From NCBI GenBank assembly GCA_001914535.1, contig MNCR01000094.1:8447-63635 (forward strand): a stretch of 55,189 bases of DNA, written 5' to 3'. Of this stretch, positions 1,996 to 17,288 are shown piece by piece. The stretch's first letter is position 1. Each line of letters opens with the position of its first letter. Under the pieces are notes generated by a model. That model was not told where the DNA came from, did no database searches, and saw only the letters and a program-made list of their open reading frames with translations. The translations under genes were made by a program, and so were the position numbers. The DNA is from Candidatus Rokubacteria bacterium 13_2_20CM_69_15_1. Its GTDB lineage: Bacteria > Methylomirabilota > Methylomirabilia > Rokubacteriales > CSP1-6.

Positions 1996-3264
1996 ATGAC
2001 GCTGTTCGTCGCGGGGCTCTCGCACAAGAACGCGCCCGTCGAGCTGCGCGAGCAGCTCGCCGTGGAGGAGGACAAGCTGCGGGAGCTCCTGAGCGATGTC
2101 TCGGCCACGGGCGCGGTGCGGGAGACGTTGATCCTCTCCACGTGCAACCGGGTCGAGGTGTACGGGGTCGCCGAGGCGCCCGGCGAGGCGCGCGCCGTCG
2201 TGTTCCGCCACCTCTGCCGCTACCGGGGCGTCGCCTATGGCTCGGTGGAGCCCCTCCTGTACACGCACCTGGACGGCGACGCCGTGCACCACGCCTTCCG
2301 GGTCGCTGCGAGCCTCGACTCGATGATGATCGGCGAGCCGCAGATCCTGGGCCAGGTGAAGGACGCCTTCGGCCTCGCCCAGGCATGCGCGACGGTCGGG
2401 CCGGCGCTGCACACGCTCTTCACCGCGGCCTTCGCCGTCGCCAAGAAGGTCCGGACCGAGACGGAGATAGCCCGCCACGCGGTGTCGGTCTCGTTTGCGG
2501 CCGTCGAGCTCGCGCGGAAGATCTTCGCGGGGCTCGGTGGCAAGGCTGTCCTCCTCGTGGGTGCGGGCAAGATGGGCGAGCTGGCGGCGCGTCACCTGGT
2601 CGAGCATGGTGCGTTCCCGGTCTACGTCGCCAACCGGACGTGGCCGCGCGCCCAGGAGATGGCGCGGGCCCTCTCAGGGGCGGCGGTGCCGTTCGCCGAG
2701 CTCGAGACGGCGCTCGCGGGGGTGGACATCGTGATCACCTCGACGGGCGCCACCGAGCCGATCGTCACGCTCGCGATGGTCCAGCGGGTCATGCACGGGC
2801 GCCGCGCGCGGCCGCTCTTCTTCATCGACATCGCGGTGCCGCGCGACGTCGAGGGGAGCGTGAACACGCTCGCGGACGTGTACTGCTATAACGTCGACGA
2901 CCTGAAGCAGGTCGTCGAGGCGAACATCCGCGAGCGGCTCCGCGAGGCGCAACGCGGTGAGGCGCTGGTGATGCGCGAGGTGGCGAAGTTCCTCACCCGC
3001 CAGAGCGACGTCGAGGTCATCCCGACGATCGTCTCGCTGCGCGAGCGGCTCGAGGAGATCCGGGTGGGCGAGGTGCGGAAGGCGCTGGCGCGGCTGCCGG
3101 GCGCAACGGCCGAGACGCGCGAGGCGATCGAGGCGCTCTCGGCGGCCATCGTGAACAAGATCTTGCACGCGCCGATCACGAAGCTGCGCGAATCGTCGCG
3201 CGCGGGCTCGAGCCGCTCGTGGCTCCCGCTCATTCACGAGCTCTTCGGCCTGGGACGAAAATGA
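1996..3264 (+). CDS. hemA: glutamyl-tRNA reductase
   Basis: 422 aa. Motifs: LSTCNRVEVY, the active-site Cys region, and the NADPH-binding GAGKMGELAARHL. Confidence 0.95.
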   Translation: MTLFVAGLSHKNAPVELREQLAVEEDKLRELLSDVSATGAVRETLILSTCNRVEVYGVAEAPGEARAVVFRHLCRYRGVAYGSVEPLLYTHLDGDAVHHAFRVAASLDSMMIGEPQILGQVKDAFGLAQACATVGPALHTLFTAAFAVAKKVRTETEIARHAVSVSFAAVELARKIFAGLGGKAVLLVGAGKMGELAARHLVEHGAFPVYVANRTWPRAQEMARALSGAAVPFAELETALAGVDIVITSTGATEPIVTLAMVQRVMHGRRARPLFFIDIAVPRDVEGSVNTLADVYCYNVDDLKQVVEANIRERLREAQRGEALVMREVAKFLTRQSDVEVIPTIVSLRERLEEIRVGEVRKALARLPGATAETREAIEALSAAIVNKILHAPITKLRESSRAGSSRSWLPLIHELFGLGRK

Positions 3265-3355
3265 CGGCGCCGACCTCGGTCCAATGAAGCCCCGGGCTCC
3301 TCTCTCAGGCCACGTCCGGTCCGAGCCGGGCAGGCGGACCTCGGTCCAATGAAGC
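3261..3355 (+). repeat. 65 bp-period junction repeat (family A, about 1.4 units) carrying ATGA-linked mini-ORFs
   Basis: gacctcggtccaatgaagc occurs at 3272-3290 and again at 3337-3355. The core tcaggccacgtccgg is related to the repeats at 6078 and 13581. Confidence 0.85.
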
Positions 3356-5095: not shown

Positions 5096-6081
5096 TGGCG
5101 CATGCGATGTTCCGTCCGAGGCGTCTCCGAGAGAAACCGCTGCTGCGCGCGCTGATCCGTGAGACGGCGCTGGCGGTCGACGACTTGATCTACCCGCTCT
5201 TCGCAGTCCACGGGCGCGGCGTCCGCGAACCGATCACGTCGATGCCGGGGCAGTTCCGGCTGTCCATCGACGAGCTGGTGAAGGAGGTCAAGGACGCGGC
5301 GGGGATGGGGATCCCTGCGGTGCTCCTCTTCGGGGTGCCGGCGGAGAAGGACCCCCGTGGCTCCGAGGCCTACGCCGAGGACGGCATCGTCCAGCAGGCA
5401 ATCCGCGCCGTGAAGGACGTCGTGCCCGATCTCCTGGTCGTGAGCGACGTGTGCCTCTGCGAGTACACGAGCCACGGTCACTGCGGGATCGTCGAGGGCG
5501 GCAGCGTCCGCAACGATCCGACGCTCGAGCTGCTCGCACGCGTCGCAGTCTCGCAGGCCGAGGCGGGGGCCGACATGGTGGCGCCGTCGGACATGATGGA
5601 CGGCCGCGTCGCCGCGATCCGCGAAGCCCTGGACGAGGCGACCTTCACCGACACGCCGATCATGGCCTACTCGGCGAAGTACGCCTCGAGCTTCTACGAG
5701 CCGTTCCGGGAGGCCGCCGACTCCGCGCCGCAGTTCGGCGACCGGCGCCAGTACCAGATGGACCCCGCCAACGCGCTCGAGGCCATGCGCGAGATCGCGC
5801 TCGATCTCGACGAGGGCGCGGACATCGTGATGGTCAAGCCCGCGCTGCCGTACCTCGACATCATCTCGCGCGCGAAGGCGGAGTTTGGAGTGCCGCTGGC
5901 CGCGTACTCGGTCTCCGGCGAGTACTCGATGATCCGCGCGGCGGGCCGGCTGGGCTGGCTCGACGAGGAGCGCGCCATGATGGAGGCCCTCGTGGGAATC
6001 CGGCGGGCGGGTGCGGACGTGGTGATCACCTACTTCGCGCGCGAGGCGGCGCGCCTCCTGGAGCGAGGCCGCTCGAGATGA
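5095..6081 (+). CDS. hemB: porphobilinogen synthase (delta-aminolevulinate dehydratase)
   Basis: The ATG at 5095 overlaps the hemD TGA (TGATG), with an AAAAGGAG RBS at 5081-5088; GTG 5092 is an alternative start. ALAD motifs: [25 protein letters not shown] and VKPALPYLD. Confidence 0.95.
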
Positions 6082-6260
6082 CGCCACGGGTGCCTTTGTC
6101 AGGCCACCCCCGGTGGGAGCCGGCCTCGCGGACCCCGCTACAAATGACGCCACGGGTGCCTTTATCAGGTCACCCCCGGTGGGGGCCGGCCTCGCGGACC
6201 CCGCTACAAATGACGCCCGCCGTCGACCGGCGCCGGCGGGGCATGACGCGCGCGCGCTGA
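6078..6260 (+). repeat. 66 bp tandem repeat (family A, 2 full units plus a partial) forming one in-frame 60-codon ORF
   Basis: Units begin at 6078, 6144 and 6210, each with atgacgcc. Units 1 and 2 are near-identical, with a few mismatches. Confidence 0.9.
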
Positions 6261-6263
6261 GCG

Positions 6264-6707
6264 ATGCGAATCTCGGCGAAGGGCGAGTATGCGATCAAGG
6301 CGGTGCTGGATCTGGCGATCCGCGGCGGGGAGGGGCTCGTGCCGATCCAGGACATCGCCGGGCGGCAGGCGATCCCGCAACGCTACCTGGAGCACGTCCT
6401 CTTGGCGCTGAAGGGCGCCGGGGTCCTCGGCTCGAAGCGCGGCGCCTCGGGCGGCTATCACCTGACGCGCCGGCCCGAGGAGATCAGCGTCGGTGACGTC
6501 TTGCGGGCCGTGGAGGGGTCCGCGGCGCCGCTCGAGACGCGCCGACGGACGGGCCGGCGGAACGGCGACGAGACGTACGAGCTCGGTGAGCTCTGGGAGG
6601 AGATCGGGAAGGCAGTCTCCGAGGTCGTCGACCGCGTCACCTTCGGCGACCTCGCGACCCGCGCACTCGCGCGCCGCAGCGCGGTGCGCGCGATGTACCA
6701 CATATGA
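6264..6707 (+). CDS. Rrf2 family transcriptional regulator, cysteine-free (CymR-like)
   Basis: 147 aa. The N-terminal wHTH is MRISAKGEYAIKAVLDLA...IPQRYLEHVLLALKGAGVL..RGASGGY. There are no Cys residues at all, so no Fe-S ligands. Its stop overlaps the cysK start (ATGA). Confidence 0.85.
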   Translation: MRISAKGEYAIKAVLDLAIRGGEGLVPIQDIAGRQAIPQRYLEHVLLALKGAGVLGSKRGASGGYHLTRRPEEISVGDVLRAVEGSAAPLETRRRTGRRNGDETYELGELWEEIGKAVSEVVDRVTFGDLATRALARRSAVRAMYHI

Positions 6708-7624
6708 CGCCGCGGCCGAAGATCGCGTCGTCGGTGCTCGAGCTGATCGGGCACACCCCGATGGTCCGCCTGAACCGGCTCCCGAGACCGGGGGGCGCGA
6801 GCGTCGTCGCCAAGCTCGAGTCGCTGAACCCCGGGGGAAGCGTCAAGGACCGGATCGCGCTCGCGATGCTCGAGGCCGCGGAGCAGCAGGGCCGCGTCAA
6901 GCCCGGCTCGACGATCGTGGAGCCGACCAGCGGCAACACGGGCATCGGGCTGGCGATGGCCGCCGCGGTGAAGGGCTACCGGCTCATTCTCACGATGCCC
7001 GACGACATGACCGTAGAGCGCCAGCGACTGCTGGCGCGGTTCGGCGCTGAGATCCACCTGACGCCCGCGATCGAGGGCATGACTGGCGCGGTGTACGCGG
7101 CCCAGGAGCTTTGCCGCGAGCACCCGGACTACTTCATGCCCCAGCAGTTCGAGAACCCGGCGAACCCCGAGGCGCACCGCCGCACCACGGCCCTGGAGAT
7201 TCTGGACGCCGTCGCCGGCCGCCTCGACGCGTTCGTCGCGGGCGTCGGCACCGGTGGCACGGTGACCGGGGTGGGTGAGGTGCTCAAGCAGAAGCTCCCC
7301 GGCGTGCGCGTGATCGCCGTCGAGCCGGCGAAGTCGCCGGTCCTCTCGGGCGGCCGGGCGCGGCCCCACGCGATCCAGGGGATCGGTGCGTCTTTCGTGC
7401 CTGGCGTCCTGAACCGGAGCATCATCGACCGGATCGTTCTGGTCCGCGACGAGGACGCGATCGGGTGGTCGCGGCGGCTCGCGCGCGAGGAGGGCCTGCT
7501 GGTGGGGGTCTCCGGCGGTGCCGCGGCGTTCGCCGCGTGCGCCGTCGCGGCGGAGCTCGGCCCCGAGCAGCTCGTCGTGACCGTGCTTCCCGATACCGGC
7601 GAGCGGTACTTGAGTCAGGGGTAG
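6704..7624 (+). CDS. cysK: cysteine synthase (O-acetylserine or O-phosphoserine sulfhydrylase; CysK/CysM type)
   Basis: 306 aa. It has the PLP-lysine region (NPGGSVKDR), TSGNTGIGLA, and a GTGGT loop (GVGTGGTVTG). Confidence 0.9.
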   Translation: MTPRPKIASSVLELIGHTPMVRLNRLPRPGGASVVAKLESLNPGGSVKDRIALAMLEAAEQQGRVKPGSTIVEPTSGNTGIGLAMAAAVKGYRLILTMPDDMTVERQRLLARFGAEIHLTPAIEGMTGAVYAAQELCREHPDYFMPQQFENPANPEAHRRTTALEILDAVAGRLDAFVAGVGTGGTVTGVGEVLKQKLPGVRVIAVEPAKSPVLSGGRARPHAIQGIGASFVPGVLNRSIIDRIVLVRDEDAIGWSRRLAREEGLLVGVSGGAAAFAACAVAAELGPEQLVVTVLPDTGERYLSQG

Positions 7625-7730
7625 TGCGAGCCGAGCGGCGGCCGCGGAGGCTCGGCGACGCGCGCCGCGAGGCGAGGCTGCAGACGGGGTAGTGCGAGCC
7701 GAGCGGCGGCCGCGGAGGCTCGGCGACGCG
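7618..7730 (+). repeat. 45 bp direct repeat (2 copies, 68 bp period) that includes the cysK stop codon
   Basis: ggggtagtgcgagccgagcggcggccgcggaggctcggcgacgcg occurs at 7618-7662 and 7686-7730. It contains an internal GCCGAG...CTCGGC stem around a GCGGCCGC palindrome. Confidence 0.85.
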
Positions 7731-7741
7731 GGTGACCGTTC

Positions 7742-7830
7742 GGGTTCGAGCGCCGGCTTTGCCGGCGCAACCGATTCCTGGGGGGAGGTTTCGGAAGGGG
7801 GGCAAAGCCCCCCTCCGAGGTTTCAGGAGG
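7742..7830 (+). repeat. structured two-hairpin intergenic element (family D, copy 1)
   Basis: Hairpin 1 is GCGCCGGC-ttt-GCCGGCGC (7750-7768). Hairpin 2 is GGAAGGGGGGC-aaa-GCCCCCCTCC (about 7793-7816). Related copies lie at 17192-17288 (inverted) and 32672-32786. Confidence 0.8.
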
Positions 7831-7835
7831 CCAGT

Positions 7836-8117
7836 ATGGCGGTCACCGTGTACATCCCGACGCCGTTCCGACGGGCGACGAACAACCGCGATCGCCTCCA
7901 GGCGTCGGCGAAGACGGTCGGCGGGCTCCTCGACGAGCTCGAGGAGGCCTTCGCTGGTCTCAAGGGGCTCGTGCGCAACGAGGGCGGCGAGGTGCACCAC
8001 CACGTCAATATCTACGTAAACAGCGACGCGATCGAGTCGCTCGACGGACTCTCCACACCGCTCAAGGACGGCGACGAGGTGGCGATCATTCCCGCCCTGG
8101 CGGGCGGTGGCAGGTGA
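7836..8117 (+). CDS. cysO: MoaD/ThiS-family sulfur carrier protein (CysO-like), C terminus ...AGGGR
   Basis: 93 aa from ATG 7836, with a CAGGAGG RBS at 7824-7830. It is beta-grasp-like, with a [16 protein letters not shown] tail. It lies between cysK and a JAMM peptidase, as in the mycobacterial mec-cysO-cysM set. Confidence 0.75.
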
Positions 8118-10555: not shown

Positions 10556-10679
10556 CGGAGCCGGACGTGCCTGTGATTCGTCACCTTCGCCCTGACCCGA
10601 GCTGGAGCTCCGATAAACGGAGCCGCACGTGCCTGTGACTCGCCACCCTCGCCCGGATGCGAGCTGGAGCTCCGATACA
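10556..10679 (+). repeat. 62 bp tandem repeat, 2 units (family B, related to the family A core)
   Basis: Units are 10556-10617 and 10618-10679. The core gtgcctgtgactcgccaccc resembles gttcctgtgtcaggccaccc of family A, with 16 of 20 identical by hand count. Confidence 0.85.
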
Positions 10680-13579
10680 TGATGAACCGACGGGACTTCT
10701 TTCGGGTCGTCGCGGCGAGCGGCGCCACCGCCGCCGTCACGGGCTGTCAGCGGACGGCGGAGAACATTCTGCCGCTCGTGGTGCCGAACGAGCACATCGT
10801 GCCGGGCGTCGCCGCATGGTTTGCGACGGTGTGTCGCGAGTGCCCGGCCGGCTGCGGCGTCATCGCGAGGAACCGCGAGGGCCGCGTCGTGAAGCTCGAG
10901 GGGAACCCCGACCACCCGGTCAACCAGGGCGCGCTGTGCGCGCGCGGTCAGGCGGCACTCCAGGGCCTCTACCATCCCGACCGATTCGCGGGCCCGCGCC
11001 TTCGCGACGGGGCCGCGCTGAAGCCCGTGAACTGGGACGCGGCCCAGAAGGTCGTCGCCGACAAGATCGCGGCGCTGCGGAGCGCGGGCAAGGGATCGGC
11101 GATCGCGCTCGTGACCCAACTCGAGACGGGAAGCCTGGGCGCGTTCCTCGACACGTGGACGCGGGCCCTCGGCACGCGCCCGCGCCTGAGCTTCGAGCCG
11201 TTCGGCTACGAGGCGAACCGCGCGGCGAACCGGATCACGTTCGGCCGCGACGCGATCCCGTACTACGCCTTCGAGGACGCACGGGTCGTGGTCTCCTTCG
11301 GCGCCGACTTCCTCGAGACGTGGCTGTCGAACGTGAACTACGCGCGGGCCTTCGCGCACATGCACACGTTCCGCGACGGCCGCGCGGGCACATACCTTCA
11401 CATCGAGCCACGGCAGTCGCTGACCGCGTCGAACGCCGACGAGTGGGTACGTAACGCTCCCGGCAGCGAAGGGCCGCTGGCGCTCGCGATCCTCAAGGTG
11501 ATGGTCGACGAAGGGCTCGCCGACCGGCGCTTCGGCGAGGCCGTCGCCCGGATCGACGTCAAGAAGGTCGCGGCCGACAGCGGCGTTCCCGTCGAGACGA
11601 TCACGCGCGTCGCCCGGGCCTTCGCCGACGGCAAGCCCAGTCTCGCGATCGGCGGCGGGATGGCCGTGACGGGCTCGAACGCGACGCAGACCCTGGTCGC
11701 CGTCAACCTGTTGAATGCGGCGGCGGGCAACGTCGGCAAGACCGTCCGCTTCGGCCCCGACTCGGCGTTCGGCAGGGTGACGCCGTACGCGGAGACGGCC
11801 CGGCTCGTGCAGGCCATGGCCCGGGGCGAGGTGGAGGTGCTGGTGCTCGGCAGCGGCGTAAACCCCGCCTATACGCTCCCGGGTGGCCTCAAGTTCGCCG
11901 ACGCCGCGAAGAGGGTGGGGCTCGTCGTCAGCTTCGCGAACCAGCCGGACGAGACGACGGCGCTCGCCCACGTCGTGCTGCCCGACACACACTGGCTCGA
12001 GTCGTGGGGAGACTACTCGCCGCGGGAGGGCGTCGCCGGCCTCATGCAGCCCACCATGGCGCCCGCGCGCGACGCGCGACCGATGGGAGACACGCTCCTC
12101 GCGCTGGGCCGTGCAGTGCTCGGGAGCGAGGCGGGGAAGGGGCCGCTACCCTGGGCGACCTTCGAGCAATACCTGAAAGCGGCGTGGGAGCCCAGCGTCA
12201 AGGGTGCGTGGGCGTCGGCGCTCCGCCTGGGCGGTGTCTGGAAGGAGACGGCGCCGGTCGCGGTGACCGCGCGCGTGGCGCCCGTCGACCCGGCGCCCCC
12301 GACGTTCGAGGGCACCGCCGATGGGCTCGCCCTTCTCGCGTATCCATCCTTCAGGTTCTACGACGGGCGGGGCGCGAGCCGCGCGTGGCTCCAGGAAGCG
12401 CCGGACACGATGACCCAGGCCGTGTGGGATCCGTGGGTGGAGATCGCGGCGGAGACGGCGGCGAAGCTCGGCATCGCCCGGGGCGACGTGGTCAGGGTGA
12501 CGTCGCCCCACGGTGCGATCGAGCTTCCCGCGTACGTCTCGCCGACGCTCCATCCGCAGGCGGTCGCCGTCCCCATCGGCCATCGCTACGCGCCCTATCA
12601 CATTCCACGCTACGTGACGGCGCCCCTCGGCCCACGCAACCCGGTCGCGCTGCTCGGGCCGGCCGCCGAGGGCGCGTCCGGCGGCCCCGCGTACCTCGGC
12701 GTCCGCGTGACGCTCGCCAAGACGGGCGCCCGGCACCCGCTCGCCATCCTCCAGGCGACGCACGATCAGGAGGGTCGAGAGCTCGCGCAGCACGTGGACC
12801 TCCGCGCGGCGCGCGAGCAGGCGCTCCGTGGCCGCCAGGACCACGAGGCGCACACCAGCATGTACCCCGACCCGCGGTACCCCGGGTACCGCTGGGGCAT
12901 GGCGATCGACGTGGACGCGTGCATCGGCTGCCAGGCGTGCGTGGTCGCCTGCCAGGCGGAGAACAACGTGCCCGTCGTCGGGCGCGCCCAGGCGGCCTAC
13001 GGGCGACAGCTCCAGTGGATCCGCATCGAGCGCTGGGCGGAAGGGAAGCCGGATCGGCCCACGAACCTCTTCCTGCCGATGCTCTGCCAGCATTGTGAGG
13101 TCGCCCCGTGCGAGCCCGTCTGTCCCGTGTTTGCGGCGTATCGTACGGAAGAAGGTCTCAACGGTCAGGTGTACAACCGTTGTGTCGGGACTCGATACTG
13201 CGGCAACAACTGCCCCTACCACGTGCGCCGCTTCAACTGGTTCCAGTACGAGTTTCCCGCGCCGCTCGACGTGCAGCTGAACCCCGACGTGACGGTTCGC
13301 CAGCTCGGGGTCATGGAGAAGTGCACGATGTGTCTGCAGCGCATCATCGCGGGCAAGGACCACGCCCGTGACGAGAGGCGTGCGGTGAAGGACGGCGACA
13401 TCCTGACCGCCTGCCAGCAGACGTGCCCCACCCGGGCGATCACCTTCGGCAACCTGAAGGACGAGCAGAGCGCCGTGGTCAAGTTCGCGCACTCGCCGCG
13501 CGCCTATCACGTCCTGGAGGAGATCGGGACGCGGCCGTCCATCACCTACCTCCAGAAAGTCGTTCGTGAGCACGCGTAA
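10679..13579 (+). CDS. actB: Alternative Complex III subunit ActB (molybdopterin-oxidoreductase-like domain fused to a 4Fe-4S domain)
   Basis: 966 aa. It has a twin-arginine signal with a lipobox (MMNRRDFFRVVAASGATAAVTGC), an N-terminal Cys cluster (CRECPAGCG), and C-terminal ferredoxin-type CxxCxxC motifs. Confidence 0.9.
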   Translation: MMNRRDFFRVVAASGATAAVTGCQRTAENILPLVVPNEHIVPGVAAWFATVCRECPAGCGVIARNREGRVVKLEGNPDHPVNQGALCARGQAALQGLYHPDRFAGPRLRDGAALKPVNWDAAQKVVADKIAALRSAGKGSAIALVTQLETGSLGAFLDTWTRALGTRPRLSFEPFGYEANRAANRITFGRDAIPYYAFEDARVVVSFGADFLETWLSNVNYARAFAHMHTFRDGRAGTYLHIEPRQSLTASNADEWVRNAPGSEGPLALAILKVMVDEGLADRRFGEAVARIDVKKVAADSGVPVETITRVARAFADGKPSLAIGGGMAVTGSNATQTLVAVNLLNAAAGNVGKTVRFGPDSAFGRVTPYAETARLVQAMARGEVEVLVLGSGVNPAYTLPGGLKFADAAKRVGLVVSFANQPDETTALAHVVLPDTHWLESWGDYSPREGVAGLMQPTMAPARDARPMGDTLLALGRAVLGSEAGKGPLPWATFEQYLKAAWEPSVKGAWASALRLGGVWKETAPVAVTARVAPVDPAPPTFEGTADGLALLAYPSFRFYDGRGASRAWLQEAPDTMTQAVWDPWVEIAAETAAKLGIARGDVVRVTSPHGAIELPAYVSPTLHPQAVAVPIGHRYAPYHIPRYVTAPLGPRNPVALLGPAAEGASGGPAYLGVRVTLAKTGARHPLAILQATHDQEGRELAQHVDLRAAREQALRGRQDHEAHTSMYPDPRYPGYRWGMAIDVDACIGCQACVVACQAENNVPVVGRAQAAYGRQLQWIRIERWAEGKPDRPTNLFLPMLCQHCEVAPCEPVCPVFAAYRTEEGLNGQVYNRCVGTRYCGNNCPYHVRRFNWFQYEFPAPLDVQLNPDVTVRQLGVMEKCTMCLQRIIAGKDHARDERRAVKDGDILTACQQTCPTRAITFGNLKDEQSAVVKFAHSPRAYHVLEEIGTRPSITYLQKVVREHA

Positions 13580-13580
13580 G

Positions 13581-13740
13581 CCAATGCAGCCCCGCGTTCC
13601 TGTGTCAGGCCACCCACGGTGCACGCCGGCCTCGCGGATCTCGGTGCAATGAAGCCCCGCGTTCCTGTGTCAGGCCACCCACGGTGCACGCCGGCCTCGC
13701 GGATCTCGGTGCAATGAATCCCCGCGTTCCTCGCCCGTGA
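13581..13740 (+). repeat. 65 bp tandem repeat (family A, 2 units plus a partial) with ATGA/GTGA-linked mini-ORFs
   Basis: Unit ATGs lie at 13584, 13649 and 13714. Units 1 and 2 are near-identical apart from cag/aag in codon 2. Confidence 0.9.
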
Positions 13741-15083
13741 GCGACACCCGCGCCGCGTCCCCCACGTTCGCCGACGTCACTCGCGACGTCGTCCGCACGC
13801 TCGAGCCGCCGGGCAACCTCTACTTCGCGTGGATGTGCGTCGTCGCCCTGATGCTCGCCGGCGGGATCGGCGCCTGGACCGGCCAGATCTGGTGGGGCAT
13901 GGGAATGGCCGGCAAGCGCGTGCCCCAGATGTGGGCGATGTATATCACAAGCTTTGTGTTCTGGATCGGCATCGGTCACGCGGGCACGCTGATTTCGGCG
14001 ATCCTCTATCTCTTCCGGGCGCGGTGGCGGACGTCGATCTACCGCGCGGCGGAGGCGATGACGATCTTCGCCGTGATGACCGCGGGCCTCTTCCCGCTTA
14101 TCCACGCCGGGCGGATGTGGTTCGCCTACTATCTTCTCCCGTATCCGAATCAGCGGCTCCTCTGGCCGAATTTCCGGTCGCCGCTGGTCTGGGACGTGTT
14201 CGCGATCTCGACCTACCTGACGATCAGCACGGTCTTCTTCATCGTCGGGCTCGTCCCCGACATCGCGGCGCTCCGAGACGTGTCCACGGGCTGGCGGCGG
14301 CGCATCTACGCGATGCTGGCGCTCGGTTGGGAGGGCTCCGACTCGCAGTGGCGCCACTACCGGCGCGCGTACGGGCTGCTCGCATCGCTCGCCACTCCGC
14401 TCGTCCTGTCGGTCCACAGCGTGGTGTCGTGGGACTTCGCGATGGCTCTCGTCCCGGGCTGGCACTCTACGCTGTTCGCGCCGTTCTTCGTGGACGGCGC
14501 CATCTTCTCGGGCTTCGCGATGGTGCTCATCCTCGTCCTCCCGATGCGCCACTTCTTCAGGCTCCACGCCTACATCCAGGAGAAGCACCTGGACGCGATG
14601 GGCAAGCTCATCCTGGTGACGGGTCTGGTGCTGACCTACTTCTACGTGTGCGAGGTCTTCACCTCGCTCTACAGCGGCGACGAGATCGAGAAGGCCTCGC
14701 TCTTCTGGAAGGTGACCAAGAACTACGCGTGGGCGCTCTGGCTGATGTACTTCTGCAACTGCGTCTCGCCGCTGATCCTTTTCTGGGGGAAGGCTCGCAC
14801 GAGCCCGGTCGTGCTCTACGTCGTGTCCATCCTCGTCCTGATCGGCATGTGGTTCGAGCGCTTCAACATCATCGTCCCGTCGCTCGGCCACGACTTCTAC
14901 CCTTACACGTGGGGGATCTACTACCCGAGTCCGACCGACACGATGATCGTCATCGGCAGCTTCGCGTGGTTCTTCCTGCTGTTCCTCGGCTTCATCAAGG
15001 TGATGCCGTCGCTGTCGGTCGTCGAGGTCAAGGAGACCCTTCCGCCGCCGATCAAGGACCGGTCGCATGGCGGCCACCGCTGA
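13737..15083 (+). CDS. actC: Alternative Complex III subunit ActC (NrfD/PsrC-like quinol-interacting membrane subunit)
   Basis: 448 aa polytopic protein of NrfD-family character, with a GTG start. Its position after actB supports the call. Confidence 0.85.
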   Translation: MSDTRAASPTFADVTRDVVRTLEPPGNLYFAWMCVVALMLAGGIGAWTGQIWWGMGMAGKRVPQMWAMYITSFVFWIGIGHAGTLISAILYLFRARWRTSIYRAAEAMTIFAVMTAGLFPLIHAGRMWFAYYLLPYPNQRLLWPNFRSPLVWDVFAISTYLTISTVFFIVGLVPDIAALRDVSTGWRRRIYAMLALGWEGSDSQWRHYRRAYGLLASLATPLVLSVHSVVSWDFAMALVPGWHSTLFAPFFVDGAIFSGFAMVLILVLPMRHFFRLHAYIQEKHLDAMGKLILVTGLVLTYFYVCEVFTSLYSGDEIEKASLFWKVTKNYAWALWLMYFCNCVSPLILFWGKARTSPVVLYVVSILVLIGMWFERFNIIVPSLGHDFYPYTWGIYYPSPTDTMIVIGSFAWFFLLFLGFIKVMPSLSVVEVKETLPPPIKDRSHGGHR

Positions 15084-17191: not shown

Positions 17192-17288
17192 ATCGAAGGG
17201 GGCCTCTGACCGACGGGCTCCGCCCTCTGGGGCCCCCTCCGAGCCTCCCCCAGGATTCGATTGCGCCGGCGGAGCCGGCGCTCGAACC
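17192..17288 (-). repeat. structured two-hairpin intergenic element (family D, copy 2, inverted orientation)
   Basis: It contains GCGCCGGC-gga-GCCGGCGC (17263-17281) and AGGGGGCC...GGCCCCCT (17197-17238). Its reverse complement aligns with 7742-7830. Confidence 0.75.

Follow-up and report, generated by a model that had tools for sequence, protein, structure and literature searches.

The closest described systems are the MIRUs, which are mobile, insert at start codons, and carry an internal ORF with -4 nt coupling to the gene that follows (PMC12548453). MIRU units are 40-100 bp in length and present in approximately 40-50 copies, with both filled and empty sites and with tetranucleotide direct repeats; their ORFs overlap the flanking genes, and imperfect terminal and internal G+C-rich inverted repeats are found in them (PMC3184786). 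These descriptions go back to Supply et al. (1997, Mol Microbiol 26:991) and are taken here from the summaries given by PMC12548453 and PMC3184786.

The window analysed here, which is the whole stretch of DNA of 55,189 nucleotides, contains a tandem repeat between actB and actC that belongs to a repeat family of Rokubacteria. The family resembles the MIRUs in several respects. Units of 40-100 bp (here 65/66 and approximately 86 nt) are located at tens of intergenic sites, often in tandem (75 arrays in the source genome), and the number of tandem units varies between relatives (approximately 2.3, 0.35, and 0 at actB-actC). The arrays tend to take the orientation of the flanking operon genes (52 versus 11 arrays), and an internal ORF is predicted to be coupled to the downstream gene at -4 nt (ATGA, ATGA, and GTGA at actB-actC). 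Furthermore, insertion is at start codons, with empty sites in relatives and tetranucleotide direct repeats (contig C127 of the source genome, and ATGA-19 nt-ATGA in the congener G001), and the peptide is without known function. In contrast to the MIRUs, the host belongs to Rokubacteria/Methylomirabilota and not to Actinomycetota, the sequence family is another one, and no inverted repeats were found in the Rokubacteria element. There are also two length classes, with bodies of 61 and approximately 82 nt, which follow the same 1-mod-3 rule, and a 66-nt version that reads through. Accordingly, the element is best read as being of the MIRU kind but not of the MIRU family. The likeness is one of architecture; homology to MIRU sequences is not expected, because, beyond a single Rokubacteria family, the profile matched no genome more than once, and then only weakly.

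REP/BIME sequences are likewise short, abundant, lineage-specific intergenic repeats that are often clustered. REPs are G+C-rich palindromic hairpins mobilised by RAYTs. Unlike them, the Rokubacteria element contains no hairpin, and REPs are not phase-locked to start codons. PF01797 (Y1/RAYT transposase) gave no match in any of the copy-rich Rokubacteria genomes examined (G000-G003, G005, G010-G012, and G016). On these two grounds, the absent hairpin and the absent transposase family, a REP/RAYT system was rejected. MITEs (for example Correia/NEMIS, RUP, and ERIC) share with the element the character of non-autonomous small insertions with target-site duplication, and some MITEs are co-transcribed and affect neighbouring genes. 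The Rokubacteria element differs from them in its strict orientation bias and its phasing to the reading frame, and it was rejected as a MITE because terminal inverted repeats were absent; no inverted repeats of 8 nt or more were found in 13575-13745. Engineered bicistronic designs and natural leader uORFs deliver ribosomes by termination-reinitiation (PMC12548453). In both, as in the arrangement described below, the stop of a short ORF overlaps the downstream start, and translation of the gene relies on this ORF instead of a ribosome-binding site of its own. The difference is that in Rokubacteria a mobile repeat brings the leader ORF with it, and several such ORFs can follow one another in a chain.

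The actB and actC genes lie within an ActA-B-C-D-E operon (Pfam). The features of their junction are given below; the mini-ORFs of the repeat are called relay ORFs.

10679..13579, + strand: actB; 966 aa, molybdopterin-like plus Fe-S subunit of alternative complex III (PF00384, PF04879, PF01568, 4Fe-4S)
13580..13583, + strand: ancestral 4-nt spacer GCCA, which separated the original actC start from the actB stop; empty-site relatives have GCG-TGA-GCCG-ATG-AGC-GAC
13584..13648, + strand: repeat unit 1; 65 nt, consisting of ATGc and a 61-nt body; nhmmer core match C92:22042-22091
13584-13652, + strand: relay ORF 1; 22 codons and TGA, encoding MQPRVPVSGHPRCTPASRISVQ
13649..13713, + strand: repeat unit 2; 65 nt, consisting of ATGA and the same 61-nt body as unit 1
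13649-13717, + strand: relay ORF 2, encoding MKPRVPVSGHPRCTPASRISVQ; its ATG overlaps the TGA of relay ORF 1
13714..13736, + strand: remnant unit; 23 nt, consisting of ATGA and 19 nt that include the unit head ATCCCCGCGTTCCT
13714-13740, + strand: relay ORF 3, encoding MNPRVPRP; the last TGA is at 13738-13740
13737..15083, + strand: actC; 448 aa, NrfD-type membrane subunit (PF03916); GTG start, with a GTGA overlap with relay ORF 3

Tandem Repeats Finder located the array at 13582-13731, with a period of 65, 2.3 copies, and 97% matches, in agreement with the tandem 65-bp repeat of 2.4 copies given by the first-pass annotation. The two full units were completely identical over 61 nt. The translations of the three mini-ORFs matched exactly those reported before, and the overlaps aATGA, aATGA, and cGTGA were confirmed to link mini-ORFs 1-3 to the actC GTG at 13737. 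The repeat is also intercistronic, co-oriented with its neighbours, and locked at its 3' end to the actC start, as had been described. The actB stop codon TAA occupies 13577-13579, and the first relay ATG at 13584 comes 4 nt later; relay ORF 1 therefore has no overlap with the actB stop, but a 4-nt gap instead. From GTG 13737, the ActC protein begins with VSDTRAASPTFADV. When ActC homologues of 14 relatives were aligned, they matched from residue 1, with their ATG-AGC-GAC opposite the GTG-AGC-GAC of this genome. This result indicates that GTG 13737 is the true start of ActC. Comparison with the relatives also identified the ATG of repeat unit 1 (13584) as the ancestral actC start codon. At this junction, the duplicated ATGA has decayed to ATGc on the left and GTGA on the right.

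Subsequently, the actB-actC junction was compared across related genomes. The site was empty in G002, G003, G005, and G016 as well as in more distant relatives, which have ...GAGCACGCG-TGA-GCCG-ATG-AGC-GAC, with the actC start 4 nt after the actB stop. The source genome (G000) has GCCA-ATG, then 153 nt of repeat, and then GTG-AGC-GAC. An intermediate form was observed in the congener G001 (L013, C148), where the sequence is ATGA-AGCCTCGCGCCCCGCGATC-ATGA-GCGAC, a 23-nt step encoding MKPRAPRS and a stop. This remnant (ATGAAGCCTCGCGCCCCGCGATC-ATGA) equals the remnant of the source genome in length, and 15 of the 23 positions are identical by a hand count from the alignment. The comparison of unit number across related genomes, which had been put forward as a check, thus showed that the number differs: approximately 2.3 in G000, 0.35 in G001, and 0 in G002 and G003. 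Because the site is empty in most relatives, the array is regarded as a recent lineage-specific insertion and not as a conserved regulatory part of the act operon. As a separate observation, actB of G001 has lost its own stop; it is extended by two codons and ends at the first ATGA TGA of the 23-nt remnant, which is thus overlap-coupled at both ends.

A second locus, which holds a single unit on contig C127, has the sequence GCGCG-ATGA-[61 nt]-ATGA-CGGAC in the source genome versus GCGCG-ATGA-CGGAC in six relatives. The 61-nt insert at this locus is flanked by a clean 4-nt target duplication, ATGA. ATGA occurs in the source genome at 641 gene starts, at 1,259 other intergenic sites, and at 11,552 genic sites. 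The observed share of arrays at starts was 24-29 of 75, and approximately one third would be expected from random ATGA insertion followed by loss of the genic hits. Since the observed share is close to the random expectation, no targeting beyond ATGA is needed, while extra targeting stays compatible with these numbers. Selection against genic insertions would suffice to produce the bias for start codons.

The size and the distribution of the family were then determined. The source genome is a 2.8-Mb draft of 146 contigs with 69.6% G+C; no 16S gene was found in this draft. With BLAST and an iterated nhmmer profile, a 51-nt core was detected 112 times, distributed over 75 arrays; the copies form two main subfamilies with periods of 65/66 nt and approximately 86 nt. 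For the counts in relatives, we used a sequence-only covariance model (R1). Copies per genome ranged from at least 83 to at least 120 in three congeners and amounted to at least 40-117 in nine other genera of the same family, with few or none in its remaining genera; in other families of the order, R1 gave at most one weak match per genome. Among public genomes, the core pattern matched almost only MAGs of Candidatus Rokuibacteriota/Methylomirabilota from soil and groundwater, and a literature search for Rokubacteria intergenic repeats found no relevant paper. The mean identity was 83% between adjacent units within an array and 64% between loci, which suggests that arrays grow mainly by local duplication.

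Some insertions are possibly shared across genera. One lies at a B12-binding mutase subunit in the source genome (the set on contigs C42 and C101) and in G003 (L004), and another at a CoxM-like gene in the source genome and in G016 (L007), orthology being judged for C42, C101, L004, and L007 from the N-terminal sequence only. Judged from these sequences, part of the family may be old and the actB-actC insertion young.

Orientation and phase were examined genome-wide with gene calls and gene starts from a simple codon-usage caller made for this analysis (2,706 genes, 91% coding). Co-directional genes flanked the array in its own orientation in 52 of the 75 cases versus 11 in the opposite orientation (binomial p = 1.7e-7), and 62 of 74 arrays had a co-oriented downstream gene. 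The distance from the end of the conserved core to the called start was exactly 3 nt in 24 arrays, in the form ..CG(A/C/G/T)T-NCA-ATGA. We also searched co-directional spacers of 55-320 nt for chains of ATG/GTG ORFs that lead from the stop of the upstream gene to the start of the downstream gene; at each junction, the start could lie at -4 to +13 nt relative to the first base of the stop before it. A complete chain of any kind was found in 25 of 35 element spacers versus 56 of 467 element-free spacers (Fisher p = 2.5e-14); when only overlapping junctions were admitted, the numbers were 17 of 35 versus 22 of 467 (Fisher p = 6e-12). Outside the canonical context were 23 of the 75 arrays, and 10 of the 35 mid-sized element spacers lacked a complete chain; the gene caller may account for some of these non-canonical arrays and chain-less spacers.

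The same arrangement was recovered from a public replication set of 115 loci, which were fetched by the core pattern alone and were not used to define the family. A co-oriented long ORF was present within 120 nt in 95 of the 114 evaluable arrays, and in 41 of these 95 its start lay exactly 3 nt after the core; 39 of the 41 read NTGA. By hand reading, the same layout was found in four other genera before genes for transthyretin-like, B12-binding mutase, CoxM-like, and MtnA-like proteins. The start/stop overlap, on whose presence at homologous elements elsewhere the first-pass annotation had staked its claim, is therefore present there as a strong statistical tendency (25/35 versus 56/467, and the 39 public NTGA junctions). 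Taken together, the anatomy of the repeat, the genome-wide tendency, and the replication in public MAGs make translational coupling the natural reading.

Among all called genes, 37% had a Shine-Dalgarno motif at -18..-4, and the motif occurred in 16% of random 15-mers, but in none of 29 genes directly preceded by the element. Translation of these genes probably relies on termination-reinitiation, or else on the tail of the element, which is comparatively rich in A/T (..GATACA-ATGA). A different placement was seen at the public loci L136, L110, and L080, where the tail ..GCTACAA is followed by a canonical AGGAG and by a start 15-16 nt downstream. At these loci, the element sits just 5' of a normal ribosome-binding site and off the start codon.

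We consider it probable that a small, non-autonomous mobile repeat, specific to one family-level clade of Rokubacteria (Methylomirabilota), recently inserted between actB and actC and was then duplicated locally to form the array. The element may move as DNA by means of a putative enzyme. It inserts at the tetranucleotide ATGA and duplicates this target, which typically consists of a start codon and the following A and often forms a stop/start overlap. The bodies of 61 nt and approximately 82 nt are both 1 mod 3. A 61-nt body and the 4-nt duplication give a step of 65 nt, or 2 mod 3, by which the left ATG is brought into frame with the TGA of the right ATGA. Provided that the body is open in this one frame, a short ORF begins at the left ATG, and its end and the displaced start share a 4-nt overlap. 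The same arithmetic is found in the 86-nt subfamily (82 + 4) and in the 23-nt remnants (19 + 4). Some 66-nt units read through in frame, and the relay rule is thus not the only design.

Applied to the act operon, this mechanism predicts that ribosomes finishing actB would re-initiate 4 nt further on, at the old actC start at 13584. Relay ORFs 1, 2, and 3 would be translated in turn, and termination would take place on top of the actC GTG at 13737. Such a relay would deliver ribosomes to actC and preserve the termination-reinitiation coupling that the ancestral 4-nt spacer is presumed to have provided. Insertion at a start codon would thereby be nearly neutral, which would explain the survival of copies at these sites, and the relay peptide itself would be functionless. 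The strong conservation of the blocks GGCCACCCAC and CCGGCCTCGCGG, which show no RNA structure, is not accounted for by the relay model alone. A bolder version, which we hold to be rather improbable, would treat the elements as active 'translation-neutral' transposons: a candidate enzyme other than RAYT would act at ATGA in fixed orientation on a 1-mod-3 body, GGCCACCCAC...CCGGCCTCGCGG would be its recognition sites, and the arrays in act and hem would become evolvable dials of stoichiometry.

Several other explanations were weighed against an insertion of this kind. Conservation in the family is at the nucleotide level and not at the codon level: the column entropies at codon positions 1-3 of the relay frame were 0.84, 0.79, and 0.63, the third position being the least variable, and the blocks GGCCACC and CCGG.C.CGCGG are invariant or nearly so. 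Such a pattern speaks for a structured RNA or a protein-binding element, in which the frames would be incidental. The mRNA might be processed, stabilised, or attenuated there, or a nucleoid or regulatory protein might bind to the DNA. Structured RNA was ruled out, since the array folded more weakly than its shuffles (MFE, z = +1.22), single units gave a mean z of -0.07 (n=85), and RNAalifold of 60 units yielded -1.9 kcal/mol with no compensatory pair. An Rfam scan of 20 kb at E <= 1 returned nothing relevant, and the actB-actC spacer contained neither a promoter nor a terminator match. These results, together with the lack of inverted repeats, argue against the explanation in its RNA form, and a pure binding site would leave the exact 3-nt phase, the ATGA duplication, and the open frame unexplained. 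We judge it quite unlikely as a whole. The role in mRNA processing or stabilisation that had been suggested for the repeats is likewise disfavoured, with no hairpin, no covariation, and no terminator. The relay frame, which contains ..SGHP.., is open in 81 of 84 units (internal stops in 3, versus 26 and 7 in the other two frames) and is common to the 65-nt and 86-nt subfamilies; these properties could indicate a repeated micro-protein gene with a functional small peptide. However, a functional peptide was rejected on the ground that variation shows no excess at third positions. Moreover, the peptides vary freely in sequence and in length (8 to 85 codons), the 8-codon remnant units serve equally in chains, and the diverged actA-actB repeat encodes unrelated peptides, so that a peptide gene appears very improbable. 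The identity and proximity of the two units would also fit a chance local tandem duplication of an intergenic region without any family, but the 112 related copies genome-wide and the hundreds in relatives refute this idea, to which we give practically no credence.

An adaptive role deserves separate consideration. The unit number may have been selected to set the ActB:ActC and Hem-enzyme translation ratios, with a certain fraction of ribosomes passed on at each step. Consistent with such a rheostat, congeners differ in copy number at actB-actC, arrays are carried by four haem and alternative complex III operon junctions in a single window, and genes preceded by the element without a Shine-Dalgarno motif should have an output that depends on the relay. 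Yet the genes that follow the element at its 75 loci are unrelated and revealed no common functional theme; they include genes for methylmalonyl-CoA mutase and for CoxM-like, MtnA-like, and glycosyltransferase-like proteins. The special tie to respiratory or haem operons suggested by the first-pass annotation accordingly did not hold, as the 75 loci precede genes of all kinds. In addition, the actB-actC junction is empty in most relatives that have the operon, and the two identical units look like a very recent and possibly neutral duplication. The subunits of alternative complex III assemble into one complex, and a lower supply of ActC would therefore bring no obvious benefit. We thus regard selection of the unit number as unlikely, and favour the recent insertion of a mobile repeat.

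Complete relay chains were present at the three other loci of the window as well (4/4 loci), which are as follows.

3261..3352, + strand: hemA-hemC array; 23-nt tail fragment and one 65-nt unit
6078..6260, + strand: array after hemB; two 66-nt units and a tail, with a single in-frame ORF of 60 codons
10547..10682, + strand: actA-actB repeat; diverged 62-nt x 2 (Tandem Repeats Finder), with three relay ORFs

The hemA-hemC array has two relay ORFs, with ATGA overlaps at both ends. The ORF of the array after hemB begins with an ATG that overlaps the hemB TGA and stops 3 nt short of the next gene, whose ATG is at 6264. The relay ORFs of the actA-actB repeat start with TTG, GTG, and GTG, and NTGA overlaps are found at every junction, up to the actB ATG at 10679. 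This repeat gave no match to the family profile, and BLAST found no other copy in the genome. Its ACGGAGCC head and CCGATAC-ATGA tail are like those of the main family by eye only; it may be a relative of the family, a resemblance short of established homology. It had been claimed that every copy lies between co-directional cistrons, in their orientation, and with its 3' end phase-locked to the downstream start. Within the window this description stood, but genome-wide it did not extend to every copy, with 52 of 75 arrays canonical and 10 of 35 mid-sized spacers without a complete chain.

Units of 66 nt (0 mod 3), as found in the window at 6078-6260 and at the public loci L101, L098, and L130, end with ACAA-ATG-A, and their frame enters the next ATG in frame without stopping. 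With such a unit in the last position, the relay ORF would fuse in frame to the downstream gene, possibly as an N-terminal extension. The window contains two further repeats. A separate dispersed repeat of approximately 42 nt (GGTTCGAGCGCCGGCTTTGCCGGCGCAACCGATTCCTGGGGG) occurs at 7743-7784 and 17247-17288 on opposite strands; it holds a GCGCCGGC/GCCGGCGC hairpin and gave approximately 50 BLAST matches on both strands of about 40 contigs. This repeat looks REP-like; a RAYT gene was not found in the source genome. The spacer that precedes the gene at 7836 holds an identical pair of 45-nt direct repeats, at 7618-7662 and 7686-7730, with a distance of 68 nt between them; contigs C21 and C26 carry near-identical copies, and C6 carries a partial one.

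Until now, MIRUs have been viewed as peculiar to mycobacteria, and their main use has been as typing markers. The same design in an unrelated phylum suggests a convergent solution by which mobile DNA resides inside operons with translational coupling unbroken, and the Rokubacteria family offers a simple rule for it, a body of 1 mod 3 and a 4-nt ATGA duplication. If the doubtful reading as 'translation-neutral' transposons were true, the MIRU design would have arisen independently in two phyla and would represent a general means by which mobile DNA can persist within operons. In practice, hundreds of Rokubacteria junctions will lead gene callers to misplace starts or to predict spurious small genes, and strains in soil metagenomes could be told apart by their arrays. 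In the act operon, the array is a recent passenger rather than a conserved regulator.
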